DNA of 64,000 bases from Candidatus Omnitrophota bacterium. GTDB taxonomy: Bacteria; Omnitrophota; Gorgyraeia; B26-G9. Below the pieces are notes generated by a model. The model had not been told where the DNA came from. It did not search any database and saw only the letters and a list, made by a program, of their open reading frames with translations. The stretch covers positions 5,758 through 69,757 of the forward strand of contig JBDRPX010000023.1 in the NCBI GenBank assembly GCA_043826565.1, read 5' to 3'. A program made the translations under genes and the position numbers. Position 1 is the stretch's first letter. Every line of letters begins with the position of its first letter. Of this stretch, positions 13,381 through 58,834 are shown in pieces.

Positions 13381-13462
13381 TAAAAACCTATTATTTAATT
13401 TTAAATTTTCTATATGTATCCTTCCTAAAAGGAAGTACCAATACCTGAGCCTTTACTTTCTT

Positions 13463-14668: not shown

Positions 14669-14679
14669 TGGAGATATCT

Positions 14680-24666: not shown

Positions 24667-24720
24667 CTCAAACCCAACTAGTCAACCGGTCAACCGGCTT
24701 ACTGGCCAACTCGATAACTT
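24667..24720. repeat. Repeat flanking four-helix-bundle gene 3 (right arm)
   Basis: caactagtcaaccggtcaaccggcttactggccaactcgataac carries the palindrome aaccggtt-like units. It is complementary to parts of 24206-24303. Confidence 0.55.
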
Positions 24721-30182: not shown

Positions 30183-30748
30183 TCATATAACTCATTGATA
30201 TTGGCAAGATACTGCTCAGAGATACGTTTCCATTCGATTTTAAACCAAGGAGTATAGGCAAACGGGTTTTCCCGGACATCTCTGTTGAGCTCTTCTATCT
30301 CTACATATTTCCATTCGGCAATTTCCCGGGAATTCGCTTTAACAATTTGCGTAGCCTTACCCAGATAAACAGAACATAGCTCATACTCGGATCCCAGATC
30401 ATTAAATTGCGCTTGGTATTTAAATTTAAATAAAAACTTCAGCGGTAAGGTCAATCCCAGTTCTTCCTGCAATCGTCTCTGCAGAGCTTCCTCGCAGCTT
30501 TCTCCCTCCCGGGGATGACTGCAAACACCATTTGACCAAAATAGCGGCCAAAGAGGCTTCTCCGCGCTTCTCTTCTGCAGTAATACTTGTTTCTGTTCAT
30601 TAAAAATAAATATAGAAAAAGCCCGATGTAAAACCCCTTTGCCGGCATGGCTTTTTATCTTACTCGCATATCCGATAATATTATCTTCGTCGTCAACAAG
30701 AATTAATTTTTCATCCGGAGATGAGACCTTATTGCTATCAAATTCCAT
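30179..30748 (-). CDS. idi: Isopentenyl-diphosphate delta-isomerase, type 1 (Nudix)
   Basis: 189 aa. HRAFSIFIFNEQKQVLLQKRSAEKPLWPLFWSNGVCSHP...ALQRRLQEELG closely matches the IDI-1 active-site region (C in CSHP, the Nudix E-E-L-G motif). Confidence 0.85.
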   Translation of the reverse strand: MEFDSNKVSSPDEKLILVDDEDNIIGYASKIKSHAGKGVLHRAFSIFIFNEQKQVLLQKRSAEKPLWPLFWSNGVCSHPREGESCEEALQRRLQEELGLTLPLKFLFKFKYQAQFNDLGSEYELCSVYLGKATQIVKANSREIAEWKYVEIEELNRDVRENPFAYTPWFKIEWKRISEQYLANINELYD

Positions 30749-43219: not shown

Positions 43220-43238
43220 AAACTACCTTTTCTAAAAA

Positions 43239-44600
43239 TTATAACTTATTTTGTTTAGCAATTAACCGCCCGCATTGAATTCCTGATTCCATTGCCTGAG
43301 GCACACATGGGCCTTCCGGAGACACGGAATCTCCCACTAAAAATAATCCATGAATATCCGTTTCGACAGGAACACGTGGAGATTGAATTTGCGGCTCTAC
43401 TCCAAAAACATAAGCCGGCAACCCAAATTCTTTTTCATACATTTTTGGATTATAAATAGTATAATTTGTCACTGCACCAGCTAACCCGGGGAACAAATCA
43501 TTAAGCCCCTGGTTTAAAACTAAATGAGCCTGTTTTTCAACCAGATCCGGGTTCACATTTCCTCGGGGATGATAAAACTGCAATGTTGCTCGGTGACAAT
43601 CTTTTACATCATATTCCATATTTGAGGGTATATGCATTATAAACATTGACTTGGCCGGGAATTCCCCCCGTTCTAATAAATCAAACTCGGAAGACACATC
43701 GTAAGGCATAAAAAAAACACCATATCCTTTAGGCAATCTAAACGATTTACGGAATCTAATAAAGATATTAACAACGCTTAATGTTTCTTTCATCTGGCTC
43801 ACTGCATTATAAAAATCTTTTTTCCAATTTTCGCGTCGTGTTAAATTCAAAACTGTCTGTCGCAAACCAACATTGCTGATTATAGTTTCCGCGAATAGAT
43901 TTTCGCCGTCAGCTTCAACTCCGACAACACGCTCCTTTTCAATAATTATTTTTTTTATTGTTTTATTCATGATTATTTTGCATTTCTTTTCGGCTACTTC
44001 CATTAGTTTTGCCGCAATTTGGCCATTTCCTCCGGCAATATACTCAGGGTTAAGTCCTTTATACTCTGCTATTGCACTTTCTTGAGAAAAATATCTTGAA
44101 GGTAATCCATAGGGGCTAACCCCAGAAACTGCTACTATGGTATCCCAGAATCTTCTTAGTTTTTCATTCGATATCAATTGATCGTATAATTCCCCTACAG
44201 ATTTGAACTTTTCAAAAGTATCCGAATCACTCAAAATCTTTGCTTTAGCTCTAAACCTTAACAACTCTGTAAACGGAATACCAGAAAAAATGAATTCTAT
44301 CAGCGTTCTTTTCCCTAAAGGAAATGAAGCCATTCCTTTACCAATCTTTATGCCACAACGCATCGGAAAAGTTGTAAGATTAAGCCCAAAAGTATCTCTT
44401 AAATGATCAAATGCCGCTCCTCCAACGTAAATAGCCCCGATTTCATAGCTTAATCCATCAATACTTCTCGTTGCACACCGCCCTCCCAACAGACTATTTT
44501 GTTCGATCAAAATCGAATTGATTCCGTTCTTACTTAAGTAAGCCGCAGCAGTTAGCCCTCCGACACCTCCTCCGATAATAATTACAGGCACCTTACTCAT
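43239..44600 (-). CDS. Phytoene-desaturase-family FAD oxidoreductase (CrtI/CrtD/CrtN-like)
   Basis: 453 aa. The N-terminal VIIIGGGVGGLTAAAYLSKNGINSILIEQNSLLGGRCAT is the FAD-binding motif. The C-terminal GLFLVGDSVSPEGPCVPQAMESG is CrtI-typical. Confidence 0.75.
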   Translation of the reverse strand: MSKVPVIIIGGGVGGLTAAAYLSKNGINSILIEQNSLLGGRCATRSIDGLSYEIGAIYVGGAAFDHLRDTFGLNLTTFPMRCGIKIGKGMASFPLGKRTLIEFIFSGIPFTELLRFRAKAKILSDSDTFEKFKSVGELYDQLISNEKLRRFWDTIVAVSGVSPYGLPSRYFSQESAIAEYKGLNPEYIAGGNGQIAAKLMEVAEKKCKIIMNKTIKKIIIEKERVVGVEADGENLFAETIISNVGLRQTVLNLTRRENWKKDFYNAVSQMKETLSVVNIFIRFRKSFRLPKGYGVFFMPYDVSSEFDLLERGEFPAKSMFIMHIPSNMEYDVKDCHRATLQFYHPRGNVNPDLVEKQAHLVLNQGLNDLFPGLAGAVTNYTIYNPKMYEKEFGLPAYVFGVEPQIQSPRVPVETDIHGLFLVGDSVSPEGPCVPQAMESGIQCGRLIAKQNKL

Positions 44601-45601
44601 CAGACTGCTCCCACTATTTTTAAGCGATTATTTAATAATACCAATAAAGGGAAAAATGTTTTTTTATAAGGAGTTTTTGCAGACATATACTGTAGGAATT
44701 TTTTAGTATAAAAATTTTTCGTCATTCTGGAAAATTCCTTTCGGGCAATCTTCTCATTCATGAAATAATCTGCCGCAATTTTCCCAGACAAAAGCGCTCC
44801 GGAAATCCCGTTTAAGTAAAAGGGGTCGATCATTCCGCTCATCGTTCCAGCTAAAGCAATTCCCTCTTTTTCGATATTTTTATTAAGCGGAATACTGCCG
44901 GAGGAAAATGTCCATGATTTAAAAGCAATTTTTTCTTTTTCCCAAATAAAATCCTCAAATCTTTTCAGCTTATCGCTACTCATTGAATTACGGGAAAACA
45001 AAAGGCCGAAAACACAATCTTCATATGAAGCAAGATAAGCAAACTCCCCATTTGTATAATCACCAAAACATGAAACCGCCATATTTTTGTTTTGCGTAAT
45101 TCCCGAAGCCCTAAACCCCTGGATCATCTTATATTTGATGCCGCATATTTGATAAGCCGGAAGCTCTAATCCGCAAGCAATTATAGCTTTTGATCTGTCT
45201 TTTTTGAGAGAATTTAAAGTTTCTTGATCAAGCGGCTGGTTAAAAATAAATTTCACTCCTAACCCGCAAGCAATTTTATAAAGGTAATTTTCAATTGAAT
45301 TTTCATGGCCGCCTTTTAAACACAAAAAAGCGTGAAGAGGGTTCACAGCATGAGTTTTTTTGTCATAAAAATATATCGAATGTCTTACCGCACGGCGAAA
45401 ACACCGCGACATATCGATACCGATGTATTCCGAGGTGCGTTCAAGGTCCATATATTGCAGATGAACAGACGGATGCCATTTAGGATCGCCCCCTACTGTT
45501 TTTCTGTTTTCAATGATTTCCGCTTCAAAACCGGCCTTAGCCAAATTTATGCCGGCAACCAACCCGGAAATGCCTGCTCCGTAAATTCTAATTTTTTCCA
45601 T
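44600..45601 (-). CDS. Geranylgeranyl-reductase-family flavoprotein (GGR-like FAD-dependent oxidoreductase)
   Basis: 333 aa. The N-terminal IYGAGISGLVAGINLAKAG is a Rossmann motif. The C-terminal LAGTMSGMIDPFYLNGISGALLSG resembles the GGR GDAAG..P..GEGI motif. Confidence 0.55.
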   Translation of the reverse strand: MEKIRIYGAGISGLVAGINLAKAGFEAEIIENRKTVGGDPKWHPSVHLQYMDLERTSEYIGIDMSRCFRRAVRHSIYFYDKKTHAVNPLHAFLCLKGGHENSIENYLYKIACGLGVKFIFNQPLDQETLNSLKKDRSKAIIACGLELPAYQICGIKYKMIQGFRASGITQNKNMAVSCFGDYTNGEFAYLASYEDCVFGLLFSRNSMSSDKLKRFEDFIWEKEKIAFKSWTFSSGSIPLNKNIEKEGIALAGTMSGMIDPFYLNGISGALLSGKIAADYFMNEKIARKEFSRMTKNFYTKKFLQYMSAKTPYKKTFFPLLVLLNNRLKIVGAV

Positions 45602-45621
45602 TCTTTGAATCCTTATTAATT

Positions 45622-47067
45622 TTAAGATGATTTTAAAAAACTTAAAATTTCGGAAATTTTTTTCATTTTTAATTCACCAAGCACGATCAGAAAAATAGTA
45701 TAACAAAATAGTCCGACAAAAAACGGGATCAGGAAAAACATATCTTTCATAAAGAAGATTATTCCTCCTGTCAAAATAGCAGCAAAAATCGGCTTATATC
45801 CTAAACTGATCAAAGTAGGACTATTTTTAAACGACTCCCTGAATAAACGCGATTTCATTACAAGCACTAGGAAACCACAAAAAACAGTTGCCGCACTTGC
45901 ACCCAGGTATCCATATTGGGGAATCAAAATAAGATTTAACACGAAATTTGCACAGATTATAATCAATGAGCCAACCATTAAGATTTTAAGTTTTTCTTTC
46001 TGCACAATCAAAAACAGCCCCATTGGCCCGGCAAAATGATTCAACAAGAAAGACCAGATTAAAATCCTGAAAACCTGAGAACTAAGGGCAAATTCCTTTC
46101 CAAAAACAAATGGCACAATTTGCCCAGAAAGCAAAAACAGTGCTACCGTAAAAAAACTGGAAAAAATTATCATTACTCTCATTGATTTAAGATATATTGG
46201 GTATGTATTTTCTAAAGAGCTCTTACTTTGGGATGATATAAATGGCAGCATCGCACCCATAAAACAACCAGTTACCACACCTAAAGCTTCATTCAGTTGA
46301 ACCGCCACCCCATATATTCCTACATCCTGCATAGTTTTCATTTTAGAAAGCATGACAATATCCATTCTTCTTAATAAAATGCTTAAACCAATAAGAGAAA
46401 AAAGAGGAAAAGCCTGCTTTAAAAGACTATTTACTATCTTCAGATCAAATCTGGGTTTAAATTTGACAAAATCCTTTTGAACAATGTAAAAAAGCACAAG
46501 GGAAGTAATTCCTGTGCCTAAGATCATCAGCAATATCATTCCCCCAAGATTTAAACCTAACCGAAGAAATAAAATACCCAATATCGTAAAAAAAGCGGAA
46601 AGAACGACCCCAACAACAGAAAAGATTTCCATCTTCTCAAATCCGCTTAAAACCGCGGTTAACCGGCTAATTGCCGAATTAAAAAAGATCGTGCTGCCCG
46701 CTAAAACAATTAAAAAAATCAATTGTTTAGGGTAACCTAAATACACTGCGAAAAGTACCATCCCTATCCAGGCCAGCAATGAAAAACCCATGGATAAAAA
46801 TATGGAATTACCATAAAGCTCCTGAGCTTTTGTCTTGTCTTTGGCGATTTCCCGGGTGATGACAGTTGATAAACCAAAATCCGCAAAAATATTAGCAAAA
46901 GTAAGAAAAGCTAAAATAGTGGAAAACATGCCGAAGCCGTCCCGAGAAAGATATCGGGCTACGTACGAGATAAAAATTAAATTTATGACCCCCGTAAATA
47001 CTTTATTACCGAAAAGAGCAATCGTATTTTTAATTACTCTGAATAGGTCCGTTTTTTTATGTTCCAT
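45622..47067 (-). CDS. Wzx-type flippase (polysaccharide biosynthesis protein, MOP superfamily), second copy
   Basis: 481 aa with 12-14 TM segments. N-terminus: IKNTIALFGNKVFTGVINLIFISYVARYLSRDGFGMFSTILAF. Confidence 0.75.
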   Translation of the reverse strand: MEHKKTDLFRVIKNTIALFGNKVFTGVINLIFISYVARYLSRDGFGMFSTILAFLTFANIFADFGLSTVITREIAKDKTKAQELYGNSIFLSMGFSLLAWIGMVLFAVYLGYPKQLIFLIVLAGSTIFFNSAISRLTAVLSGFEKMEIFSVVGVVLSAFFTILGILFLRLGLNLGGMILLMILGTGITSLVLFYIVQKDFVKFKPRFDLKIVNSLLKQAFPLFSLIGLSILLRRMDIVMLSKMKTMQDVGIYGVAVQLNEALGVVTGCFMGAMLPFISSQSKSSLENTYPIYLKSMRVMIIFSSFFTVALFLLSGQIVPFVFGKEFALSSQVFRILIWSFLLNHFAGPMGLFLIVQKEKLKILMVGSLIIICANFVLNLILIPQYGYLGASAATVFCGFLVLVMKSRLFRESFKNSPTLISLGYKPIFAAILTGGIIFFMKDMFFLIPFFVGLFCYTIFLIVLGELKMKKISEILSFLKSS

Positions 47068-47070
47068 TTA

Positions 47071-47847
47071 TTATCTCTTTATCTTTTCTGTTTTCAAACC
47101 ACCCTGCGCTTTTTTTGAACAACTTTTCTCCGTCTTAAAAAAATTCACACGTTTCTTTTTATGAATTATTTTATGTAAAAATTTTCTAATTCTAGGCTTT
47201 GAAGTGTAAAAATCTTCAAAATGATCCCAAGGCCTGTCATCACGGCTATTCTTTTGAAATAAAATTAGATTTGCCTGAGGAGTTTTAACTAAACTATAGT
47301 CTTTACGATTGGTTTTTATCCAGGAGGAAATACTCTGTAATGCCGGCATCCAAGAATCATGAAACAGAATATAACTACCCTGATTTAATAATAAGTCAGC
47401 AAAGAAAAAATCCACAAACGCGAAATCAAATTTATGATCTCCATCTATAAAAATAAAATCAAATTTCATGCCATCATCAAGAAACTGCGGCAAAATATTA
47501 TATGAGAAATCATTTTTAAAAGTAAGATACTTATCAAACCCCAGATTCTTCAAATTTTTCAATCCCAGATTTTTAAATTTTTCCTGAAAAGGGTCAATGG
47601 CGTAATGCCGGCTTTCTGTTGCCGAAATAATATGTGCAGCCGAACACCCAAAGGCCAAACCAATTTCTAGAGTTTTTTTTATATTTTTTTCCTTTAAAAA
47701 AAAGTGGATGTATTCCGCTTCATCTTTTGAAATTGAGATTAAAGAATATTTTTCAGGAATTACTAAGTTCTCATATATATTCTGTGTCATATTATTCTCC
47801 GGCAATTGGATTATCCTCAATCTTTTAAAATTACTTACTCTTTCCAC
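47071..47847 (-). CDS. Class I SAM-dependent methyltransferase (Methyltransf_24 / O-MT family 3-like)
   Basis: 258 aa. LEIGLAFGCSAAHI is a glycine-rich SAM motif. FIFIDGDHKF...GSYILFHD matches the family. Confidence 0.55.
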   Translation of the reverse strand: MERVSNFKRLRIIQLPENNMTQNIYENLVIPEKYSLISISKDEAEYIHFFLKEKNIKKTLEIGLAFGCSAAHIISATESRHYAIDPFQEKFKNLGLKNLKNLGFDKYLTFKNDFSYNILPQFLDDGMKFDFIFIDGDHKFDFAFVDFFFADLLLNQGSYILFHDSWMPALQSISSWIKTNRKDYSLVKTPQANLILFQKNSRDDRPWDHFEDFYTSKPRIRKFLHKIIHKKKRVNFFKTEKSCSKKAQGGLKTEKIKR

Positions 47848-47855
47848 AGCTCCAT

Positions 47856-49001
47856 CTATTTCTCATCTTTCTGTTCCGATGTTTTTTTCTGGAGAAATTG
47901 AGAATGCAGAATTTTTTTCTTTAACAAGTTAAATATCCTCAGGTTGCTGCCTTTTTGGTAAAAAATTACAAACAGGGAAAATAAATGATCCTTTAAGCTA
48001 AGATCAGAAAAATTAAAATTAATAAAGAACAACAACCCCGCGAAAACAATTAAAAATAGAGGGTATTTTAAAGTAATAATTAAAGCGAGAGATATCGGTA
48101 AAATTACATTGGGAAAATAAATATGTAAAAGATTATACGGACTCGTCCATTGTCTTGATTCCCACTGATAATAAGGATCGTAGAAATCTTTGTTTTTCAT
48201 ATTAGCAATATCTAAATAAACAGTCTGTAAAAAGAGCACGGCGAATAAAAAGACAACCGGTAAAACAAACCACGGCACTTTTATTAAGATAATCATCATA
48301 AAAACAAGCCAGGCTATTCTTTCGACGACAAGTGCTTTCCGGTAAAGTTTTGTCATTTTTTCCATGCCGATTTTAGACCCCATAGTCGCGGTTCCGGATT
48401 TAACATCATTAACCGCATCAAAAGCCTGGTGGCCGATTTCCTTGCCCAGCCCAATCACAATGGCACAGCAGGCAATGGACCACATATCCCATCCTCCGAA
48501 TACTCCGAAAGCGGAAAATAGAAGCATAATCGGCAAAGGAGACTGGGCAAAACAAGCCGCGGCTATTCCCACCCCGCCCCGTTCTTTGAACCGGATTGGT
48601 TTTAGAGAATAAAACGTTGATAAAAATATTTGAATTACCCATAAAAAAATAAAATAGTCTTCTTTAATAAATTTGATTCCGGTTAAGATTACTAATAAAA
48701 AAAGAATGCTTACAACAGCTACAGCTTTGGCATTGCTAATATTTAAAAAAGTGTTGCTCTTCCCCTCTTGCCGATCCGGCTCTTTATCTCCGAATTCATT
48801 AATTAAGTAACCATACAGGCTGGACACCGAAGCAAAGGCAATAAATATAAAAAAATCCCTTATAAATACCAGTGAGTACTTAGAATATGCTAAGCAAACA
48901 TAAAAACAGGTAATCACCAAAAAAGGCAATTTATCCGTAGCCCAATCTGTCCAGCGAAGAGTCTTAAGAATTTTTGCTTTTTCCCACATATTCACTTCCA
49001 T
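47856..49001 (-). CDS. UbiA-superfamily membrane prenyltransferase
   Basis: 381 aa, polytopic. The first Asp-rich motif is YLINEFGDKEPD (N-x-x-x-D-x-x-x-D). The second is HQAFDAVNDVKSG (D-x-x-x-D). Confidence 0.55.
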   Translation of the reverse strand: MEVNMWEKAKILKTLRWTDWATDKLPFLVITCFYVCLAYSKYSLVFIRDFFIFIAFASVSSLYGYLINEFGDKEPDRQEGKSNTFLNISNAKAVAVVSILFLLVILTGIKFIKEDYFIFLWVIQIFLSTFYSLKPIRFKERGGVGIAAACFAQSPLPIMLLFSAFGVFGGWDMWSIACCAIVIGLGKEIGHQAFDAVNDVKSGTATMGSKIGMEKMTKLYRKALVVERIAWLVFMMIILIKVPWFVLPVVFLFAVLFLQTVYLDIANMKNKDFYDPYYQWESRQWTSPYNLLHIYFPNVILPISLALIITLKYPLFLIVFAGLLFFINFNFSDLSLKDHLFSLFVIFYQKGSNLRIFNLLKKKILHSQFLQKKTSEQKDEK

Positions 49002-49909
49002 TCCAGATTTTTAATGTTCACTTCTCTCAATAAAAACCCATCCCGCAGTCCTCTCATCTTCGCAAAAATAGGTTTTTTGTAACCAATAAGTATTTTCTTC
49101 AGAATAACCCAAACACATTCCGCAATTGAAAAAAACATGAATTTTAAAAAATTCCCCCAAGAAGCATTCTTGCGCACAAACATCGCCGCGCCTCTGCCCA
49201 TCAGATAATACCAGCGGGGATTACGGTCTCCTCCGGTGCTAGCGGCAACACTGTGCCAGATCCTTGCTAAGGGCACATAAACCACCTTATATCCTTTAGC
49301 CTTTGCGCGTACGCACCAATCCACATCTTCGAAATAGGAAAAATATACGGGATCAAGCAGGCCTATTTCATCAATAACTTTTTTCTTAATCAGCAATCCG
49401 CACCCGATGATAAAATCAACTTCCCGCATGTTGTTAAACTGCCCAAAATCAAGACAGTTACACCCTATAGAATTAATCACATATTCATGAAAATTAATTT
49501 TACCTCCGATTGAATACAAATACCCGGGATGCAGTTCTAAGTGATACATTTTAGGGCCTAATATCCCGGCCTGCGCATTCTGTTCTCCGGCATCAACAAG
49601 ATGATTTAACACGTCACTGTCTACCATGGTATCATTATTGAGTAAAAATATATATTCTGCCCCTGCTTTTAGAGCCAAACGCATCCCGACATTATTACCT
49701 TCACAAAACCCCAGGTTTTTTTTATTCTTAATTATCCGGATATCCGGATAATTTTCCGAAATACAAAATGCCGACCCGTCAGTAGAACCATTATCCACAA
49801 AAAACACTTCGTAATTAGGATACTTTAACTGGCTTACGCTATAAAGACATTTCAGGCTATCTTGTTTACCATTCCAATTTAATATAATAATCGCTACTTT
49901 AGGATACAT
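48992..49909 (-). CDS. Glycosyltransferase family 2
   Basis: 305 aa. VAIIILNWNGKQDS...YEVFFVDNGSTDGS and the later NND (DXD equivalent) match GT2. Confidence 0.8.
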   Translation of the reverse strand: MYPKVAIIILNWNGKQDSLKCLYSVSQLKYPNYEVFFVDNGSTDGSAFCISENYPDIRIIKNKKNLGFCEGNNVGMRLALKAGAEYIFLLNNDTMVDSDVLNHLVDAGEQNAQAGILGPKMYHLELHPGYLYSIGGKINFHEYVINSIGCNCLDFGQFNNMREVDFIIGCGLLIKKKVIDEIGLLDPVYFSYFEDVDWCVRAKAKGYKVVYVPLARIWHSVAASTGGDRNPRWYYLMGRGAAMFVRKNASWGNFLKFMFFSIAECVWVILKKILIGYKKPIFAKMRGLRDGFLLREVNIKNLEWK

Positions 49910-50873
49910 CTCGCCCTTTTCGTTTATTTTTGAGCTTCATTAAATATTTTTGAGACCGAAATCCCTCTTTTTGAGCCTGCGCCATAAGATGGGAGTAAAT
50001 ATACCATTGCAAAGATTCCTTCTTTATGAATTTAGAAATAATCCAAATCCATAAAGGTAAAACTTTACTGTTAAAAAACAATTCCCGAAGCACCTCTCTG
50101 ATGATTTTTTCCAATGAGGAATAATCACGCAAGCCAAATTCAAATAGAACATTTTTTTCATCAGGCAGCTTTGATTCCCATATGGCCAGTGCCGCGCCCA
50201 GGTTTTTATTATGCAAAATAAAAGGTTCAGGATCCTGAAAAATATGATAATGATAGACACAAGCATCAGGATTATACATAATACGCAGCCCTTTTTTACC
50301 CAGGCGATGCCCTAATTCTCTATCCTCGTGAGCAGCATAGGGAAAATCTTCATCAAAAAGTCCGTTCTCTACTAAAAAATCTTTCTTAACCGAGATATTG
50401 CAGGTTATAAAATCAATCGGCCGGGCCTCCGCTAACCCTTTTATTTTATTAAACTCACCAATTAAATAGTGACTTGCGAATATAGGGACGGAAATACCTT
50501 CAGCCCATGTAGCATACCCCAGAACTGCCACATTTTCCTCCGGCCATTTTTGATGGCAAGCAATATGTTGCTCCAGGAAATCATCAGCCGGGATAGTATC
50601 ATCATTTATAAAAAGAACCAATGGGTATTTTGCCTCTTTAATGCCTAAATTTCTTGCTACAGCAGGGCCTTTATTTTTCTGATAGAAGTATCTGATATTA
50701 AGGCGACCTGACTTGGAAAATTTCAAAACACTCTCTTGCGTGCCGTCCCGAGAACCATCATCGACAATAATTATTTCAAAATTTGCAACGGAAAAAGTTT
50801 GCCGGTCAAAAGCTTCCAAAACGCGGATTAATACATCTTTTCGATTATATGTCGGAATAATAACTGTAAGCAT
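49899..50873 (-). CDS. Glycosyltransferase family 2
   Basis: 324 aa. LTVIIPTYNRKDVL...FEIIIVDDGSRDGT...INDDT match GT2. Confidence 0.8.
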   Translation of the reverse strand: MLTVIIPTYNRKDVLIRVLEAFDRQTFSVANFEIIIVDDGSRDGTQESVLKFSKSGRLNIRYFYQKNKGPAVARNLGIKEAKYPLVLFINDDTIPADDFLEQHIACHQKWPEENVAVLGYATWAEGISVPIFASHYLIGEFNKIKGLAEARPIDFITCNISVKKDFLVENGLFDEDFPYAAHEDRELGHRLGKKGLRIMYNPDACVYHYHIFQDPEPFILHNKNLGAALAIWESKLPDEKNVLFEFGLRDYSSLEKIIREVLRELFFNSKVLPLWIWIISKFIKKESLQWYIYSHLMAQAQKEGFRSQKYLMKLKNKRKGRDVS

Positions 50874-50920
50874 CTTAAGTTCTCACTTTTAATGTTTTAT
50901 CGAAAAACTTTTATTTCAGA

Positions 50921-51799
50921 TTAAACCGGTAAGGACATATCCGCAATACAATCTGCTAATTGGCAAAGCAAATCCGGGGATTCTAGAACACGCAGACAAT
51001 CCTTCGCCCGGGATATGTGTTTCCGTGCCATTTCACGGGATTTCCGCTGGCCATAGACTCCAACATAAGTCATCTTTTGCGGCACGATATTTCCATCAAT
51101 AGATTTACTAGTTTTCTTCTTATTTTCAGCATCGCGCAGATCATTAAATATGTGCAAAGCCTGTCCGATGTTTTTAGAATAATTTACCAGAACTTCTAAT
51201 TCCTTTTCTTTTGCCCCCGCAACAATCGCTCCGGTTCTAACCGCGGCATTGATTAATTCTCCGGTTTTATGCATGCAAATGTATGCCAAAACATCCTTAT
51301 CCATTGATTTGCCCCGAGAAAACATATCCACTACTTGACCGGCAACCATACCGGTCATACCAATTGATTTAGAAAGTTCCTGGATCAAAGACAACGCCAA
51401 TTTCGGTTCATTATAATCTCTACTCAAAATTGAAAAAGCAGCAGTTAGAAAGCAATCCCCGGCAGTAATCGCCATGTTTTCTCCAAACACTTTATGATTG
51501 CTTAGTTTTCCACAACAATAATCTTCATTCCCGGTTGCTGCCAATCCGGCATGGATCATAAAACCGGTATAAATGAATTCAATAGCACAGGCAACCGGCA
51601 TAAGCGCTTCGGCCTTGCCGCCAATTGTCTCTCCGCTGGCAATACAAAATAAAGCTCTCCAGTGTTCTCCGCCATTAAATATGCTATAACGCATTGCTTC
51701 AATCAGATTTTTGGGAATTTCTGCTTCCGGCTGAAAATATCCGTTTAAAGCCTGATCAATAAGCTTTTGCATATTATTCTTATATGCTAATATATCCAT
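50921..51799 (-). CDS. Polyprenyl-synthetase (trans-isoprenyl diphosphate synthase) homolog with both aspartate-rich motifs degenerate
   Basis: 292 aa. It aligns by eye along its length to FPP/GGPP synthases (GGEHWRALF..; KVFGENMAITAGDCFLTAAFSIL; HKTGELINAAVRTGAIVAG). The first motif (FARM) position reads HAGLAATGNEDYCCG instead of DDxxD. The second (SARM) reads FNDLRD instead of DDxxD. Confidence 0.65.
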   Translation of the reverse strand: MDILAYKNNMQKLIDQALNGYFQPEAEIPKNLIEAMRYSIFNGGEHWRALFCIASGETIGGKAEALMPVACAIEFIYTGFMIHAGLAATGNEDYCCGKLSNHKVFGENMAITAGDCFLTAAFSILSRDYNEPKLALSLIQELSKSIGMTGMVAGQVVDMFSRGKSMDKDVLAYICMHKTGELINAAVRTGAIVAGAKEKELEVLVNYSKNIGQALHIFNDLRDAENKKKTSKSIDGNIVPQKMTYVGVYGQRKSREMARKHISRAKDCLRVLESPDLLCQLADCIADMSLPV

Positions 51800-51832
51800 T
51801 TTAAAATATTTTCCTTCTTTTTTATTGAAAAA

Positions 51833-52768
51833 TTAACTCCGCGTATATATGCCAGAAACAAAACCAATTACCCAATACACTAACCCGATGGCAAACAATA
51901 CCAATACCAAAGGCCTTTTTGTGATCGCTTGTGGCTGATATCTTAAAAAAGCCATAACTGTTCTGATAAATTTTACTACCGGTAAAAGTGGAATCAGCAC
52001 TAATCCGGGCACAGGATTGCGCACGATGAACGAACCTTCCAGGTTAATCACTTTCATCACTTTCGCGGTTATTTTCCCAATTTTCCGCTGATGAACAAAA
52101 AATTCTTTTAAATTGGACCGGTGCTGATGCCTAACCTGAATTTCTGGCAAAAAGAGTATTTTCTCCCCCTTCTGCCGCAAATTATAATTAAAAACCAGAT
52201 CTTCTTGAGGATAGTACTTTCCGTCAAAAGATCCAAACTTATCAAATATGCCTTTCTTACAGGAAATATTACACGTTGGTATATGACCTGCTTCATGCCT
52301 AGGTACGCCGGGAAGAAACTCACGAAATTCCGCAATATACCCGGCCCAGCCGATCAAATCATTTTCCTCATTAGCAATATCTACCGCACCCCCCACAACA
52401 TTATACCCTTGTTTATGAGCAGTTTCTATATTTTTCAGCCAATCGCGACCGGCAATACAATCCGAATCAATAAATGCGATGATTTCCCCTTTAGCTTTCT
52501 TTATTCCCAAATTGCGAGCAGTCCCCGGATCTGTTTTTTCTTCTAAATAAGTAAATTTAATATCCGGGTATTCTTGTCTAACAATATTCGGAGTATTATC
52601 CGCGGAACTATCCACGAGAATTATTTCATACTCGCTTTCATATGATTGGTTTTTAAGAGAATCAATACATTTTCCAATCGTCTGTTCAGAATTATATGAT
52701 GGGATAACTATCGAGATCACTTTTATAACTCCTTGGGAGCAAAAATTAAATACTGATGATGTGCCCAT
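51833..52768 (-). CDS. Glycosyltransferase family 2
   Basis: 311 aa. ISIVIPSYNSEQTI...YEIILVDSSADNT...IDSDC match GT2. Confidence 0.75.
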   Translation of the reverse strand: MGTSSVFNFCSQGVIKVISIVIPSYNSEQTIGKCIDSLKNQSYESEYEIILVDSSADNTPNIVRQEYPDIKFTYLEEKTDPGTARNLGIKKAKGEIIAFIDSDCIAGRDWLKNIETAHKQGYNVVGGAVDIANEENDLIGWAGYIAEFREFLPGVPRHEAGHIPTCNISCKKGIFDKFGSFDGKYYPQEDLVFNYNLRQKGEKILFLPEIQVRHQHRSNLKEFFVHQRKIGKITAKVMKVINLEGSFIVRNPVPGLVLIPLLPVVKFIRTVMAFLRYQPQAITKRPLVLVLFAIGLVYWVIGFVSGIYTRS

Positions 52769-53616
52769 AGTTTTCGGATAAGATACGGCGAATTTTCCAG
52801 CCAGGAATGTTTCATTATTTCTACTTCCAATTGCGGGTTTTTTCCGGTAAAATAATCAAGAATACACAAGCAATCATTCTGCTCTAAGCTATCCGGCTTA
52901 GGGTTAATCCCGATCTTAGCTAAAAGCTCCTCTTTCTTCATTGCAATATCCGGCCACCAGGGAGTATCTAAATACCCCTGTTTTTGCAAATTCCAGCCTA
53001 AGCTCTTTAAAAAACTTTTTATCTTATTCGCATCGATATGCTCTGGATAGGGGATGCCTTCTTTCCGGGCACCTTTCATCCTCATTTTACAAAACACATT
53101 GGCCCGGTTAGGGATACAAATAAAAATAACCTTTCGGCTTACCCGGCTCAACTCCCCTAAAAAATTATCAAGCTTCGGGATATACCACAAAGCCGCAAAA
53201 TTCCAGCTTAGATCAAATGCTTTATCTGCAAAAGGCAACATCTTAACATTATCTAAGCAATGTTCAATATTCACATCTAAAGATGTTTGCCGCCAAACTT
53301 CTTTAATTTTTAAAATCCTCTCTTTGTCAAAATCAGTAATTGTAACCGGCACGTTTTTTGCCGCCCACCACATACTGTTAATACCGGAAATTCCGGTCAT
53401 CCCGAAACTCGGAGCTTCCAGGACATTTTTAATATTATATTCAATTTTCATCTTTTCAAAATAACCATGCAGAATAAAACGTTCATATGTCGTCCCTAAT
53501 CCTTCATGATTATTTTTAAAATATTCCGGCCAAACATTGTTAATCGCCATCGTTCCTCCGAGCATCCATTGTTTCCTCGACAATCCGGTATACCGGGCAT
53601 AAAGGCGAATCCACAA
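52723..53616 (-). CDS. Putative class I SAM-dependent methyltransferase-like protein
   Basis: 297 aa. VLEAPSFGMTGISGI resembles a glycine-rich motif I. KVIFICIPN resembles a motif-IV region. The evidence is weak. Confidence 0.35.
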   Translation of the reverse strand: MWIRLYARYTGLSRKQWMLGGTMAINNVWPEYFKNNHEGLGTTYERFILHGYFEKMKIEYNIKNVLEAPSFGMTGISGINSMWWAAKNVPVTITDFDKERILKIKEVWRQTSLDVNIEHCLDNVKMLPFADKAFDLSWNFAALWYIPKLDNFLGELSRVSRKVIFICIPNRANVFCKMRMKGARKEGIPYPEHIDANKIKSFLKSLGWNLQKQGYLDTPWWPDIAMKKEELLAKIGINPKPDSLEQNDCLCILDYFTGKNPQLEVEIMKHSWLENSPYLIRKLWAHHQYLIFAPKEL

Positions 53617-55114
53617 TTTTTTTAAATTCTATTTTTTTATTGAACATTTTTTCCCATATTTTCTTCATTTTAAGCCTATTTGATCGGTCATCAACAATGT
53701 CTGTATTTTTTAGTCCCTGAGATAATTTTTGCTTAAATGATTCCGGCCAGGATTTTTTCTCCACATAATATATTACTCTGTTTTCGAGAATAGATTTTTT
53801 ATTTTTTATCAATTTTAAAAAATCAATCATATTTGATGAAAAATTCAACCAGAAACTTTCCTTTAATCTATTCATTACCTGTTCATCAGTATACCGGCTG
53901 TCCCGGATAAGCATATTCGGCCGTCCGCTAAGAATAAAAATATTTTCTTTTTCATTAACTGAATACCAGTAGCAAACGCCAAAATTATATTCCGAAAACA
54001 TTATCGCTCTAGGTTCATATATTTTATCCAGCTCTAACACGACTCTCTGTATTTCTAAAGCCCTTCTTTTTTCCGAAGATACCCCCATATTCCATGAAAT
54101 CACTAAATAAAGAATCAGCACAACTGAAATTATGACTTTTTTTTGCTCCATTTTTTTAAAAACTTCAATACACCCTACTGACGCAAAAAAACTGACCGGG
54201 ATAAATGTTATTATAAGATGGTCCCCGGAAAGGAGTCCTAAGTTAAAAATATAAAGTAAGAATGGTAAGAACCAACAACCAAAACAAATTAAAACTTTTC
54301 TGTTTTCTTTTAACAAAATAACCACTCCCCATAAAGCAAACAAGAAAATCATGTTAAAAGAAGCACCATAAATCTTCGCCAACTCAAAAAAAACATATCC
54401 GCTAACCTTAAAAAAAGTAAACTGTTCCACAAAAAGTTCCGGAGCGAAAACTGCTGCTGAAAAAACCTCGATAACTTTTTCCGTTTTAAACAGCAATAAA
54501 ACTGCTAAAGCCAGAAAAGGCAGTAAGAACTTTAACAGCCCATTCTTGCCTGCTTTTTTTTGAACCACAAGACATCCCAAAGGAAACAATGCCAACAAGG
54601 AAGTGGGAGTTATCGAACAAGCGATCACTTCAAGAAATCCGGCCGCCAGATACCGCCCCCTAATGATTAAAATCGCTGCCAACATTACAAAGGCCAACTG
54701 CGGAACATAAACCTCCCCATGCAAAGAAAATACCATAAATGTTCCGGAAAACAATAAGATAAGCGCGGCGATCAGACTTTGCCAACGATCACCCGTAAAA
54801 TCAAGCGTCAATAGATACATACAAACAACACAAATAGCCGAAGCCCATACGGAAAAATATCCCAGAGTAAGTAAGGGGCCGGCACCAAAAATTCCCATTA
54901 AAAAATGCAGGATGGCCCCGATAACATAATAACCAAAATGGATCACCGGAGCGTCAAAACTCGACAAACTGCGGGCATATGTATAGGGATCACCATTTGC
55001 CGGCGGATAAATCATAAAAAACGGCAAAACAACAATTACCCCTAAAAAAAGAGATATCTCTATCTTGTTTTTTCCCCAGATTGTTTTAAAAAAATCAAAA
55101 ATTTTATTTTTCAT
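53540..55114 (-). CDS. Polytopic membrane protein with C-terminal soluble domain; possible GT-C-type glycosyltransferase
   Basis: 524 aa with about 11 TM segments. An acidic/aromatic motif (PPANGDPYTYAR) lies in the first loop. Context (DPM1-like synthase nearby) supports the guess. Confidence 0.35.
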   Translation of the reverse strand: MKNKIFDFFKTIWGKNKIEISLFLGVIVVLPFFMIYPPANGDPYTYARSLSSFDAPVIHFGYYVIGAILHFLMGIFGAGPLLTLGYFSVWASAICVVCMYLLTLDFTGDRWQSLIAALILLFSGTFMVFSLHGEVYVPQLAFVMLAAILIIRGRYLAAGFLEVIACSITPTSLLALFPLGCLVVQKKAGKNGLLKFLLPFLALAVLLLFKTEKVIEVFSAAVFAPELFVEQFTFFKVSGYVFFELAKIYGASFNMIFLFALWGVVILLKENRKVLICFGCWFLPFLLYIFNLGLLSGDHLIITFIPVSFFASVGCIEVFKKMEQKKVIISVVLILYLVISWNMGVSSEKRRALEIQRVVLELDKIYEPRAIMFSEYNFGVCYWYSVNEKENIFILSGRPNMLIRDSRYTDEQVMNRLKESFWLNFSSNMIDFLKLIKNKKSILENRVIYYVEKKSWPESFKQKLSQGLKNTDIVDDRSNRLKMKKIWEKMFNKKIEFKKIVDSPLCPVYRIVEETMDARRNDGD

Positions 55115-56087
55115 CAGTAATCGCCTCTAAATATGCACTGAACTTTTTTTCTGTATCGGAAAAATCAAAACTATTTCCGGAATCCGGCTGGGTCGGCAAG
55201 TAATACCAATCTTTTGACAACAACTGCATCCGCACACTCCACTTTTCATTTTTTATAAATTTAAAAATTAAATTAGCGGCATCAAAACATACCCCGGGGA
55301 TCTTTAATATCCGGGGATATTTCTTCTTATAAAAATAAAAATGGATCAAATCCGCTAACCTGCTTAAAGATATAGATTTTCTGTCGGCAATAATAAATAC
55401 ATTATTTTTCTTAATATCCGCAGTTAAAAAAAAGTTAAAGACCTCCGCCAACTTGTCCACATCAAGCAGATGAATCTTCACATCCCGAAAAGGCAAGACA
55501 AGCCTTTTTTTTCTTACTAAATCAACTAAGATCTTGGAAAAACCGTTATCTCCCTTACCGTAGACAATCGTCGGGCGGATAATAACGGCGTCCCGGCCTC
55601 TCTCTATATATTCCCGGACCTTTTGTTCTGCCAGCACCTTTGATTGATGGTACAAATTGTCCGGATTCAATGGGGTATTAATATCCGCCGGTACTACCGC
55701 AGGAATTGTTCCAAAAACTCCGACCGAACTGCAAAAAACAAATTTTTTCACCTTATGCTTATCTGCAGCTTCTAAAAGAAGCTGCGTACCGCGGACATTC
55801 ACCCGGTTATAATCATCCGGCCCCCCGGCTCCGGCGCCGCGCAATGCCGCGCAATGAATAATTGAAGAAAATGTGAACTTTTCAAAAATATCTTCAATTA
55901 CATCAGCCTCATAAAAGTTGCCTTCGCAAAGTATTACTCCGCTATTTTTGAGCGAATCAACATTCTTGTAATTTTCACTTTCCCTGACAATCGCCACCAC
56001 CGATTGCCCTTGAATAAGCAATCTTTCCACAACAGCAGACCCGATAAAACCAGTAGCTCCGGTAACTAAAATATGTTCCCTATCCAT
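55104..56087 (-). CDS. NAD-dependent epimerase/dehydratase family (extended SDR)
   Basis: 327 aa. VTGATGFIGSAVVERLL is the Rossmann motif. YHQSKVLAE is the YxxxK catalytic motif. Confidence 0.8.
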   Translation of the reverse strand: MDREHILVTGATGFIGSAVVERLLIQGQSVVAIVRESENYKNVDSLKNSGVILCEGNFYEADVIEDIFEKFTFSSIIHCAALRGAGAGGPDDYNRVNVRGTQLLLEAADKHKVKKFVFCSSVGVFGTIPAVVPADINTPLNPDNLYHQSKVLAEQKVREYIERGRDAVIIRPTIVYGKGDNGFSKILVDLVRKKRLVLPFRDVKIHLLDVDKLAEVFNFFLTADIKKNNVFIIADRKSISLSRLADLIHFYFYKKKYPRILKIPGVCFDAANLIFKFIKNEKWSVRMQLLSKDWYYLPTQPDSGNSFDFSDTEKKFSAYLEAITDEK

Positions 56088-56088
56088 G

Positions 56089-57177
56089 CTATTTCAACCT
56101 CAAAAAATTCCATCCCACACGGCCCAAAGTTCTCAGGTGATGTAAAATATTCGTGTAGCTGGCATTAGCTAAAGGACAATAACATTCTCTGTTTTTAATC
56201 CCCTGGCGCGCTTTATCGGCTTTTTCTGAAAACCATATCCTTTTAAAATCATAATCAACTGCTCTTAAATTACCTATAGGCTTAGCCGTTATACAACACA
56301 TCCAGACATCCCCATTAGGAGCAATTTGTGCCGAAGCAAAACCGGCAAAACACGGTATCACCTGAGAAGATTCCCGTAATATACGTTTTACTATTTGATA
56401 ATACTCTATACGAAATGCCCGGGTGATTTTCCCGACCTTACTAAAGTTACCGGTTTTTAATCTATGAATCAAAAAATCAACAGCTTTTACATAATCTTCA
56501 TAGTCCGGAGTTATGCCCAGGCCCATTGTCCCCAGTTCTTCCCGCTCTTCGGCAATTTCCGTTATATAGGAATCGGGATTAAGGGTACTTAGGTGATTAT
56601 ATATTTCCGGTATACGTAAAACATTAAACCGGGAAATAACAGTATGAATACCCACGGAAAGATTTGGCAAGTCCATCTTTTTCAATTCCGTAAATGTTTT
56701 TACCGCCTTTTCATAGCTTCCCGGAATTCCCCGGATAATATCATGCTTTCCCCCAATATCATCAATGGAGACATTGATCACTATCTGTGATTTCTTACAA
56801 TATTTAGCGATATTTCTGACTAACTCCGGGATCTTATCTACTAACAAACCATTTGTCGGGATATTGATTATTGCCGGAGAACAGTTATCGTACAAAGAAT
56901 AAACTATCTCTTCTACATCCTTCCGCAGAAACGGTTCCCCTCCGCTTATTGTCGCCCAAACAACAGTATTACCTATTTTTTTAAAAAGTTTTTCCCATTC
57001 CGGTGATGAAAATTCTTCACAATCTTTATTATAAATATTGCAGGTTTGGCAGCGGGAATTACATTTATAACTGACACTGAGGGTAAGATTCAGGGGAAGC
57101 TTACGCGGCCGGTTAAACAAACGAAAAAAATAGTATCCCGGAATTTTTGAAATTACTTTCAGCATATTTATTTCCAC
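56089..57177 (-). CDS. Radical SAM protein with C-terminal SPASM/twitch-like cysteine-rich domain
   Basis: 362 aa. The radical SAM cluster is YKCNSRCQTCNIY. The SAM-binding motif ISGGEPF is present. The C-terminus carries CFAGF...GDVWMCC...ECYCPLAN auxiliary-cluster cysteines. Confidence 0.7.
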   Translation of the reverse strand: MEINMLKVISKIPGYYFFRLFNRPRKLPLNLTLSVSYKCNSRCQTCNIYNKDCEEFSSPEWEKLFKKIGNTVVWATISGGEPFLRKDVEEIVYSLYDNCSPAIINIPTNGLLVDKIPELVRNIAKYCKKSQIVINVSIDDIGGKHDIIRGIPGSYEKAVKTFTELKKMDLPNLSVGIHTVISRFNVLRIPEIYNHLSTLNPDSYITEIAEEREELGTMGLGITPDYEDYVKAVDFLIHRLKTGNFSKVGKITRAFRIEYYQIVKRILRESSQVIPCFAGFASAQIAPNGDVWMCCITAKPIGNLRAVDYDFKRIWFSEKADKARQGIKNRECYCPLANASYTNILHHLRTLGRVGWNFLRLK

Positions 57178-58055
57178 TTCTTAGTTGAAGGGGAAATTTC
57201 CCAGATGAAGGGATTGTTCTTACGAATATAGAAATCATAATATCCAAGAAACCGGCTATAAATCTCTAAACATATAGCTCCCACAGCCCACATATTCTTT
57301 TTCATATCCCTCCAATATTTTTTCTTCAAGATAAGTTCAAACATGCTTCTTGTCGGATTCTGGGTGCTTACTTTGTAGTGTTGTGTCTTCATCAAATATT
57401 TATGTCCGGCGGCAATTCTTCTTCTTTGTCTAACAAAATCACGGATTGTCTCCGGTCCTTTATTATGAACAATAGCGTCCGCGACATAAGCTAGGGTATA
57501 TCCTTTATTCCTTACAATAGCTTCAATACTTGCTTCATCTACTGCCGTGTCATAAGGTATAGCCTTGACAAAACTTCTAAACGCCACCAATTCGCCTAAC
57601 TTTGGGGTTATCAGGGCTACTTGATGATGTTTCAACCAAAGGAAATGAACCGTAAAACCGATAAATGTATCCGGAGAATTCACCGGGATAGGATGGGCGC
57701 CGGTCATCCCTATAGAAGGATCTTTAAACGGCGCAACCAGTTTATTATAAGTTTCCGGATCCGGGATTGTATCGGCACTTTCCAAAATAAATATTTCACC
57801 GGCAGCTTCCGCAAGGAAAAGATTTATTGCCGATGCTTTTCCCTGCCTTGTGGTCTGAGAAATCAATCTGATGCGATTGTCTTTTTCCATAAAAGTACGG
57901 ACAATATTTTCAGTATTGTCTGTGCATCCGGAAGCTACAACAATAATTTCCGCAAAAAAAACATCAGTAAATTCCTGGGCTAATACTGCCTCCAGCAAGC
58001 GGCCGATATTGCCTTCCTCATTATAAGCCATTATTCCTAAAGATACTTTAGTCAT
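57168..58055 (-). CDS. Glycosyltransferase family 2
   Basis: 295 aa. VSLGIMAYNEEGNI...EIIVVASGCTDNT...LESADTIP match GT2. Confidence 0.7.
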   Translation of the reverse strand: MTKVSLGIMAYNEEGNIGRLLEAVLAQEFTDVFFAEIIVVASGCTDNTENIVRTFMEKDNRIRLISQTTRQGKASAINLFLAEAAGEIFILESADTIPDPETYNKLVAPFKDPSIGMTGAHPIPVNSPDTFIGFTVHFLWLKHHQVALITPKLGELVAFRSFVKAIPYDTAVDEASIEAIVRNKGYTLAYVADAIVHNKGPETIRDFVRQRRRIAAGHKYLMKTQHYKVSTQNPTRSMFELILKKKYWRDMKKNMWAVGAICLEIYSRFLGYYDFYIRKNNPFIWEISPSTKKWK

Positions 58056-58834
58056 TATTCGTCTGAATTTTGCGAACTATTGGATACAAACTCGTCATAA
58101 TCTTTAAAGAAATACGACAAATGCTTAATAATTTTTGTAATTGGCGCACGAAAGCGTAAAGTAATCCAGAACGCTTCCCTGACAACTTTGCGCGATATTT
58201 TAGAATAACCGTGTTTTCTCTCTTTAAAAATAATCGGTATTTCGTGAACACTGAATTTATTTTTAAATGTCAAATAGATCATCTCTATCTGAAAAGCATA
58301 TCCGTCTGATTTTATACTATCAAGATCAATAGTTTCCAATACCTTACGACGATAACATCTATAGCCGGCAGTAAAATCCCAAACCGGACGAACCATTATA
58401 TAGGAAACATACATGTTCGCAAATTTACTAAGCAAAAGCCTCCGGAATTTCCACCCCTCTACCCTTACACCGTCTACATACCTGCTGCCGATAACTAAAT
58501 CATACTTCTTGGCTGCCTCGAGGAAATCCTCCAAATACTTAGGATCATGGGAAAAATCCGCGTCTATCTCAAAAATCAGGTCAGCGCCCTTTGCCAAGGC
58601 TTCCTTAAACCCCCGAACATAAGCCGTACCTAATCCCATTTTTTCAGAACGATGCACCACATTTATTCGGGAATCCTGTTTTGCCAGTTCATCAGCAATA
58701 TCTCCTGTACCATCAGGAGAACTATCATCAACTATAATTAGATTAAATTCAGGCTGAAGTGTAAAAATCTGTTTAATAAGCTCCTCGAGATTTTTAGCTT
58801 CATTATATGTAGGGATAACCGCAAATACTTTCAT
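58055..58834 (-). CDS. Polyprenol-monophosphate (dolichyl-phosphate-type) sugar synthase, DPM1/Ppm1-like GT2
   Basis: 259 aa. KVFAVIPTYNEAKNLEELI...LIIVDDSSPDGTGDIADELAKQ...EIDADFSHDP is the DPM1 signature set. Confidence 0.85.
   Translation of the reverse strand: MKVFAVIPTYNEAKNLEELIKQIFTLQPEFNLIIVDDSSPDGTGDIADELAKQDSRINVVHRSEKMGLGTAYVRGFKEALAKGADLIFEIDADFSHDPKYLEDFLEAAKKYDLVIGSRYVDGVRVEGWKFRRLLLSKFANMYVSYIMVRPVWDFTAGYRCYRRKVLETIDLDSIKSDGYAFQIEMIYLTFKNKFSVHEIPIIFKERKHGYSKISRKVVREAFWITLRFRAPITKIIKHLSYFFKDYDEFVSNSSQNSDE

Follow-up and report, generated by a model that had tools for sequence, protein, structure and literature searches.

Dead homologs of trans-isoprenyl diphosphate synthases (IDSs) that act as partners of active enzymes are already known from plants, where regulation or relocation of a trans-prenyl synthase by a dead paralog is best characterized, and from bacteria in the far more divergent form of HexA and HepS. 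The plant geranyl diphosphate synthase (GPPS) small subunit of type I (SSU-I) is a non-catalytic homolog derived from geranylgeranyl diphosphate synthase (GGPPS), lacks both Asp-rich motifs and acts by dimerizing with a catalytic large subunit (PMC7839719, PMC9863795). The rice GGPPS-recruiting protein (OsGRP, SSU-II) is an inactive GGPPS homolog that forms a heterodimer with GGPPS and brings it to a membrane complex of geranylgeranyl reductase (GGR) and the UbiA-family chlorophyll synthase; SSU-II proteins keep the first Asp-rich motif (FARM) and have two CxxxC motifs, and in NtSSU II a second Asp-rich motif (SARM) could be recognized as well (PMC9863795). Micrococcus luteus HexA and Bacillus subtilis HepS are non-catalytic, lack Asp-rich motifs, pair with a PF00348 subunit and tune chain length (PMC7839719), and NgBR/Nus1 is the inactive partner of the cis-prenyltransferase DHDDS (cited in PMC7839719). 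Here we describe a gene from a Candidatus Omnitrophota metagenome-assembled genome (MAG), located in a 64-kb stretch of contig JBDRPX010000023.1 (the window), whose product P0001 is a degenerate homolog of catalytic short-chain trans-IDSs.

The open reading frame (ORF) starts with ATG, with AGGA ~14 nt upstream, and its product is identical to MFH2138177.1, annotated as 'MAG: polyprenyl synthetase family protein [Candidatus Omnitrophota bacterium]'. A first-pass annotation made from the sequence had aligned the protein along its length to farnesyl diphosphate (FPP) and geranylgeranyl diphosphate (GGPP) synthases, and P0001 is indeed a full-length homolog of the IspA/CrtE type: PF00348 matches residues 30-263 (E=2.7e-27, 96 bits; no other Pfam hit), and the best solved-structure match, Synechococcus CrtE (SeCrtE, 7MY6), covers residues 2-285 (E=3.9e-51, ~36% identity). 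Its scores lie below all curated NCBIfam cutoffs, namely those of FPPsyn (229.5 vs 275), CrtE (222.6 vs 460), and IspA (142 vs 321). An AlphaFold2 model computed from a 120-sequence alignment reaches a predicted local distance difference test score (pLDDT) of 92.5 and a predicted template-modeling (TM) score of 0.91, and Foldseek matches it to CrtE, GGPPS, and FPP synthase (FPPS) structures at TM scores of 0.85-0.9. Because the model is confident and superposes on these structures, P0001 is predicted to have kept the all-alpha trans-IDS fold. All residues that have been named as the SeCrtE dimer interface (H89, D121, L124, T125, A127, F128, and I147) are identical in P0001, which also keeps the GQxxD, AGD, and KxTY motifs and, as reported before, HKTG.

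Motif coordinates in P0001 were checked by translation, and the HMMER, MAFFT, and BLAST alignments are mutually consistent. As a yardstick of conservation we used 70 alignment columns, each at least 90% conserved among 118 homologs. P0001 deviates at 28 of these columns, far beyond what chance would give, as the homologs themselves differ at 1.4 columns on average and at no more than 8. The first-pass annotation had found FARM replaced, and IHAGLAATGNEDYCCG stands in its place (Table 1), with all three Asp residues gone (D84A, D85G, and D90G) at columns that are Asp in 118/118 homologs. Close to FARM, D92 is changed to Glu and both arginines of RRG to Cys (R95C, R96C). That realignment might reveal intact DDxxD motifs, as had been considered, is contradicted by all three programs, each of which confirms the substitutions. 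The earlier statement that both DDxxD motifs are absent holds fully for FARM; SARM has lost its first Asp only, again at a column that is Asp in every one of the 118 homologs, and D220 and D223 are kept. The chain-length-determination block had been described as conserved. It is not, since YTGFM replaces HTYSL at columns (H77, Y79, S80, and L81) that are 97-100% invariant in the homologs. Two further losses go beyond those listed earlier, in the lid loop and in the GGKRLRP motif, the Lys and Arg of which are invariant (118/118). Among the basic diphosphate-binding residues, K45, R46, R95, and R96 are thus replaced (K45E, R46H, R95C, R96C), and R48, K178, K232, and K242 alone remain.

The roles of SeCrtE residues were transferred to P0001 through the alignment of the two proteins. 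In SeCrtE, Asp90 and Asp96 are direct Mg(A)/Mg(B) ligands, Asp91 and Asp98 are water-bridging residues, Arg101 binds the diphosphate of bound isopentenyl diphosphate (IPP), Arg102, Lys51, and His83 are sulfate ligands at the proposed IPP-phosphate site, and Asp229 is a direct Mg(C) ligand (PMC9796789). The corresponding residues of P0001 are Ala84 and Gly90, Gly85 and Glu92, Cys95, and Cys96, Glu45, and Tyr77, respectively. In SARM, Asp228 corresponds to Asn219, and Asp229 and Asp232 are retained as Asp220 and Asp223. The first-pass annotation had suggested that the protein could serve the neighboring UbiA or GT2 enzymes as a subunit that binds prenyl diphosphate or as a scaffold. Since four basic residues and Mg ligands have been lost, diphosphate binding by P0001 appears doubtful. 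From what is known of structure and function in this family, we strongly infer that IDS activity has been lost; the earlier wording, 'probably non-catalytic', is well supported by the replaced equivalents of the SeCrtE Mg and IPP ligands. To judge from its residues, P0001 can almost certainly make neither FPP nor GGPP. This is a practical problem of annotation: going by its name, a pathway reconstruction of Omnitrophota would take the protein for an FPP/GGPP synthase and wrongly credit the genome with one.

Four derived cysteines occupy former active-site columns of P0001 (C95, C96, C116, and C175). C116, at a column with Ala or Gly in each of the 118 homologs, and C175, where 116/118 have His, are common to P0001 and its closest relative, P0002, and no homolog among the 118 has a Cys at either position. 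C95 and C96, which replace the RRG arginines, occur in P0001 only, P0002 having R and Y. In total, P0001 contains nine Cys (positions 52, 71, 95, 96, 116, 175, 268, 279, and 284) vs a family mean of three.

P0002 (MCP4650147.1) stems from a 'PVC group bacterium' (GCA_024231215.1, 497-kb contig), is 66% identical to P0001 and is its sole close relative. It represents an intermediate form with 18/70 conserved columns deviating, 14 of them in common with P0001. At seven of these 14 the residue is identical, among them H77Y, Y79G, S80F, D90G, P99L, and H175C. The stretch Y77-T78-G79-F80 is accordingly common to both proteins, with position 81 being F in P0002. P0002 keeps GGKRLRP, the second FARM Asp (its FARM reads EDLPATG), one Arg (RYG), and an intact SARM. 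Four more distant orthologs, P0003-P0006 (43-50% identity to P0001), have fully canonical motifs. Because P0002 is intermediate and shares deviations with P0001, and P0003-P0006 are canonical, motif loss appears to have begun in the common ancestor of both MAGs and to have advanced further in the P0001 genome. On this series, the last FARM Asp, one Arg of RRG, and the chain-length block would have been lost in the common ancestor, and the other FARM Asp residues, the second Arg, the Lys and Arg of GGKRxR, and the first SARM Asp in the P0001 genome only.

The more distant orthologs with canonical motifs are also what could speak for an artefact of sequencing, assembly, or alignment, with the motifs of the real gene intact, and the first-pass annotation had taken canonical orthologs to imply a sequencing error. 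We consider the chance of this negligible. The alignments agree with one another, the 28 substitutions are independent and come with zero frameshifts, and an independent Logan assembly (run SRR26275510) reproduces the ORF and its flanks with 100% identity over 1101 bp. Since this second assembly is identical and the 66% relative has 14 of the same losses, sequencing error is ruled out as the source of motif loss, and the degeneration is evolutionary, not technical.

Relatives were collected by a word-indexed search (5.8 billion clusters) and an exhaustive HMMER scan (1.84 billion representatives), neither of which yielded a further member of the degenerate clade beyond P0002. Among ~268 nearest relatives, FARM is absent in P0001 and P0002 only. 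The case is rare: across about 15 billion proteins, just two sequences of the nearest relatives show the degenerate form. P0140, P0189, and P0191, flagged as lacking FARM by a regular expression, were false alarms caused by RRN, RRS, or RHG variants with intact DDLPxxD.

Selection was estimated from P0001 and P0002 by the Nei-Gojobori (NG86) and maximum-likelihood (ML) methods. The ratio of nonsynonymous to synonymous substitutions (dN/dS) is 0.23 (NG86) or 0.16 (ML), with dN=0.20-0.22 and dS=0.92-1.26, within the range of 14 neighboring ortholog pairs (0.05-0.27). The ORF is intact in the window, in locus L006, and in the ortholog at the P0002 locus (L001), and none of the marks of a pseudogene (frameshifts, stops, dN/dS near 1) was found in the P0001 ORF. 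By our estimate, dozens of stops and indels would be expected in a neutral 876-nt ORF at ~1 synonymous change per site. The gene therefore appears to be still under purifying selection. Three-point branch lengths are nearly equal (P0001 ~0.23, P0002 ~0.19), hence the P0001 copy has not been drifting freely for long.

The distribution of this constraint differs from that in catalytic relatives. P0001 and P0002 agree at 64% of the 70 family-conserved columns, whereas the figure for 128 canonical pairs of equal overall divergence is 98% (minimum 94%). To judge from these figures, catalytic-site constraint is clearly gone from the P0001/P0002 lineage, being relaxed and redistributed. Of all segments, the lid loop differs most from one protein to the other (29% identity). 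By contrast, P0001 and P0002 share 73-75% of residues in helices 132-146 and 276-287, which have only 13-27% identity to the family consensus and may form lineage-specific conserved surfaces. A rate inversion is seen among the three cluster genes compared: in the canonical genomes (L002 vs L003) the IDS is the slowest (64% identity, GT2 46%, UbiA 37%), and between window and L001 it is the fastest (66%, UbiA 77%, GT2 86%).

The P0001 gene belongs to a co-directional array whose genes overlap or are separated by short spacers, and the ORF is not flanked by any terminator-like site on the minus strand. In the sense of transcription, the genes before it encode two family 2 glycosyltransferases (GT2), a radical-SAM (rSAM)-SPASM protein, an HpnA-like short-chain dehydrogenase/reductase (SDR), a 524-residue membrane protein, a methyltransferase, and a GT2. 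Directly after it follow two GT2, a UbiA prenyltransferase, an O-methyltransferase, and a Wzx flippase, then a GGR-like flavoprotein, a CrtI/CrtD-like oxidase, an AttH/CrtC-like protein, and an Rph/PEP-synthase-like phosphotransferase, and finally two B12-radical-SAM enzymes (one of the PhpK family, 288 bits, below cutoff), a family 1 glycosyltransferase (GT1), a GT-C/PMT-like protein, and a sixth GT2. dxs and type-1 idi, which encodes an IPP isomerase, form the downstream end of the same array. With these two genes the array extends over 30179-58834 on the minus strand, about 28 kb, and has eight glycosyltransferases in all. The cluster looks like an isoprenoid-glycolipid or lipid-carrier pathway that is uncharacterized, and literature searches on Omnitrophota isoprenoids found nothing on it.

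Positions 39769-58834 are syntenic with L001 in the same gene order, and synteny with L002 and L003 is partial. The canonical P0003 lies within GT2-dxr-IDS-UbiA-AttH-like in L002, and the canonical P0005 within GT2-rSAM-SPASM-SDR-GT2-IDS-...-flippase-UbiA-GGR-Rph-like in L003/L004. UbiA orthologs likewise adjoin the canonical IDS in L002 and lie inside the related cluster in L003. Orthology of the GT2, UbiA, AttH-like, rSAM-SPASM, and Rph-like genes across loci was confirmed by BLAST. The conserved core consists of IDS, UbiA, and GT2, most relatives also having GGR-like, rSAM-SPASM, and Rph-like genes, and this core recurs in L001-L004. Because canonical P0003-P0006 sit in the same type of cluster, a catalytic IDS appears to be an ancestral component of this isoprenoid-flavored envelope glycolipid cluster. 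Loss of motifs from the IDS of the cluster is found in the P0001/P0002 lineage only.

The UbiA neighbor has zero sequence-level PDB matches, and its NCBIfam matches are weak. In a comparison of four loci, its first Mg/diphosphate motif reads NExxDxxxD instead of NDxxDxxxD in the window and in L001 (12815-13972) only; L002 and L003, from genomes with a canonical IDS, have ND. This change from ND to NE may reflect a co-ordinated change in prenyl-donor handling.

Compared with the described systems, P0001 resembles the catalytic IspA/CrtE group (type II GGPPS/FPPS, for example 7MY6) in fold and length, and differs from it in the loss of FARM, RRG, GGKR, the first SARM Asp, and the lid loop, in scoring below the FPPsyn cutoff, and in its absent catalytic-site constraint. 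As an IDS homolog without functional Asp-rich motifs, it is like SSU-I, SSU-II, and GRP. Homology to SSU-I (mint 3KRA_B, snapdragon, and hop proteins) is detectable (3kra_B, E=3e-14), but P0001 is bacterial, much closer to catalytic enzymes, and without CxxxC, and its degeneration is very young, with an intermediate sister form. OsGRP/SSU-II (5XN6_C) matches at E=3e-22, and the P0001 cluster likewise encodes a UbiA and a GGR-like flavoprotein, yet P0001 has neither FARM nor CxxxC. The absence of CxxxC rules out membership of the plant-type small subunits. HexA and HepS are small, strongly diverged proteins whose genes adjoin that of their large subunit, and HepS has its own Pfam family; P0001 differs in being a full-length PF00348 member, with no large subunit in the 64-kb window. 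NgBR/Nus1 is alike in concept, as a dead paralog retained as the obligatory partner of an active chain-elongating enzyme, but is eukaryotic and has the unrelated fold of the cis-prenyltransferase family. The plant small-subunit precedents named in the first-pass annotation are apt analogies (PMC7839719, PMC9863795).

With a confidence a little above even, we regard P0001 as a structurally intact, catalytically dead IDS descendant, a retained pseudoenzyme that would most likely act as a non-catalytic dimerizing subunit. An IspA/CrtE-type enzyme would ancestrally have been part of a conserved gene cluster of the envelope isoprenoid-glycolipid type, and its Mg2+/diphosphate machinery would have been lost stepwise in the lineage of the window MAG and one sister MAG. 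The gene would meanwhile have stayed at its position, its frame unbroken and purifying selection continuing, with the hydrophobic core and the dimer-interface residues preserved. P0001 could form dimers with itself or with an active IDS whose gene lies elsewhere, and could regulate prenyl chains or channel them toward the UbiA prenyltransferase of the cluster. If the mint GPPS small subunit, M. luteus HexA, and the rice GGPPS-recruiting protein are taken as models, such a subunit would be the most economical mechanism. A bolder version, in which P0001 is the first bacterial 'small-subunit-like' regulator arisen from a full-length IspA/CrtE-type synthase, heterodimerizes with the active FPP/GGPP synthase of the cell, and diverts or channels prenyl diphosphate to the UbiA of the dxs/idi cluster, is tentative and the less probable outcome by some distance; if true, it would be convergent with plant GPPS.SSU and GGPPS-recruiting proteins.

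Several results weigh against a retained dimerizing subunit. When phmmer was run with three canonical IDSs against all six-frame ORFs, a second PF00348 homolog was not found in the 64-kb window, so that the catalytic partner paralog envisaged in the first-pass annotation is not encoded there. A scan of a collection of genome contigs gave, among the matches listed, distant canonical IspA/CrtE loci only, and none from the genome of the window. P0082 and P0084, matches from NCBI and Logan considered as catalytic paralogs, proved to belong to Firmicutes xseB-ispA-dxs loci. P0001 has no CxxxC motif anywhere in its 292 residues; in plants, such motifs mediate small-subunit interaction. Of the 15 syntenic proteins compared between window and L001, P0001 moreover has the lowest identity (66%, the others 69-90%), and the relative rate of the IDS is up 3.5-5-fold vs canonical lineages; both would also be expected of a gene that is being lost. 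At half of the shared derived positions P0001 and P0002 have different residues, which argues against a strongly constrained new site. Finally, the selection estimates rest on one pair, as the degenerate clade has two known members only.

The same divergence and acceleration, together with the vanished constraint at all former catalytic columns, the progressive loss from 18/70 columns in P0002 to 28/70 in P0001, and a clade of only two known members, would suit a decaying relic, that is, a cluster copy that became dispensable after another source of prenyl diphosphate was available and is eroding slowly, functionless and not yet interrupted. We consider such a relic unlikely. dN/dS is 0.16-0.23 at dS ~1, both ORFs are full-length and intact in spite of the dozens of stops and indels that we estimate for neutrality, and the P0001 branch is merely ~20% longer than that of P0002. 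The model is of high confidence with a predicted intact core, the interface residues are kept, and position and operon context are preserved. The intact fold, kept interface, conserved operon position, and dN/dS of ~0.2 therefore lead us to favor a retained pseudoenzyme over a dying gene. P0001 could alternatively still be an enzyme with altered chemistry, acting for example on a non-phosphorylated polyprenol or in a metal- or thiol-dependent step instead of Mg3-dependent elongation. A set of polar residues is kept (D220/D223, Q155/D158, K178/T179, R48, and E92/D93), Cys116 and Cys175 are shared with P0002 and foreign to the 118 homologs within a Cys complement three times the family mean, Y79G/S80F is conserved in both proteins, and the ND to NE change of UbiA in the same lineage hints at a changed substrate regime. 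However, Cys95 and Cys96 are not found in P0002, the residue differs from one protein to the other at half of the shared derived sites, constraint on the lid loop is absent, and we know of no precedent for an enzyme of the trans-IDS fold working without FARM. Altered chemistry thus seems quite improbable, and more so the specific idea that the emptied Mg/diphosphate site was rebuilt with cysteines C95, C96, C116, and C175 for new ligand or metal chemistry, which we regard as very unlikely.

Three states, canonical, half-degenerate, and fully degenerate, are found in one conserved type of cluster, providing a natural series for the order in which catalytic residues are lost and for what keeps such a protein selected. 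In the literature searched, we found no description of a bacterial full-length IspA/CrtE-type dead copy with an intermediate stage in a dxs/idi/UbiA glycolipid cluster. If P0001 indeed acts as a channeling subunit, this would point to metabolon-type control of an uncharacterized isoprenoid-glycolipid pathway in an uncultured phylum.

Table 1. Coordinates of the degenerate IDS gene, its motifs, and features of the surrounding array in the window.
Feature	Coordinates	Strand	Basis or remark
Degenerate short-chain trans-IDS homolog, P0001 = NCBI MFH2138177.1	50921-51799	-	292 aa
GGEHWRA in place of GGKRLRP (GGKRxRP, IPP-diphosphate-binding motif)	51653-51673	-	K45E, R46H, P49A
YTGFM in place of chain-length-determination block HTYSL	51557-51571	-	H77Y, Y79G, S80F, L81M
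IHAGLAATGNEDYCCG in place of IHDDLPxMDNDDxRRG	51509-51553	-	Residue-by-residue alignments
HAGLAATGNEDYCCG in place of HDDLPxMDNDDxRRG	51509-51553	-	Alignments and translation
HKTG, conserved (K178, T179)	51260-51271	-	Alignment
NDLRD in place of SARM DDxxD	51131-51145	-	D219N; D220, D223 kept
SKSIDGN in place of GKxxGxD lid loop	51089-51109	-	Low pLDDT; G231S
Co-directional isoprenoid/glycolipid-type gene array around the P0001 ORF	32964-58834	-	Family searches
idi (type 1 IPP isomerase)	30179-30748	-	Above NCBIfam curated cutoff
dxs	30767-32635	-	Above NCBIfam curated cutoff
Rph/PEP-synthase-like phosphotransferase	39769-42180	-	
CrtI/CrtD-like flavin oxidase	43239-44600	-	Without counterpart in otherwise collinear L001
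O-methyltransferase	47071-47847	-	Without counterpart in otherwise collinear L001
UbiA-family prenyltransferase	47856-49001	-	Motifs NExxDxxxD and DxxxD
Methyltransferase, mechanical TTG-start ORF, 297 aa	52723-53616	-	Overlaps upstream gene
Polytopic membrane protein, 524 aa	53540-55114	-	No Pfam or NCBIfam match

Some observations concern the neighboring genes. The flavin oxidase and O-methyltransferase genes that are missing from L001 are lineage-specific accessory genes of the cluster. The 524-residue membrane protein, which may be a novel GT-C-like enzyme, has a counterpart of 70% identity in L001, where the methyltransferase next to it is conserved too, and is absent from the canonical-IDS cluster of L003. 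Public gene calls for this methyltransferase are shorter (275-277 aa; L006 8250-9077, L001 8249-9082), and its true start is therefore probably a downstream ATG. The dS of adjacent ortholog pairs, compared between window 39769-58834 and L001 2972-20059, shows a six-fold spread from 0.29 to 1.77, which suggests mosaic recombination or very uneven codon constraint in the cluster.

Positions 1-29300 of the window, on the minus strand, form an exopolysaccharide/envelope island. It encodes a family 4 glycosyltransferase (GT4), a Wzy-like protein, a second Wzx, an APH-like kinase, a polysaccharide deacetylase, an Asn-synthase-like protein, an AMP-ligase, a UDP-Glc dehydrogenase, Wzz/GNVR, a tyrosine-kinase-like ATPase, and Wza, as well as ATP-grasp and FemAB-like (Acetyltransf_6) paralogs in tandem at 10986-15789. 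GC skew is negative in all 2-kb bins of the window (-0.11 to -0.37). Among the 50 ORFs of at least 150 aa, 49 lie on the minus strand, the lone exception (24593-25198) overlapping a minus-strand gene; strand co-orientation over the 64 kb is extreme.

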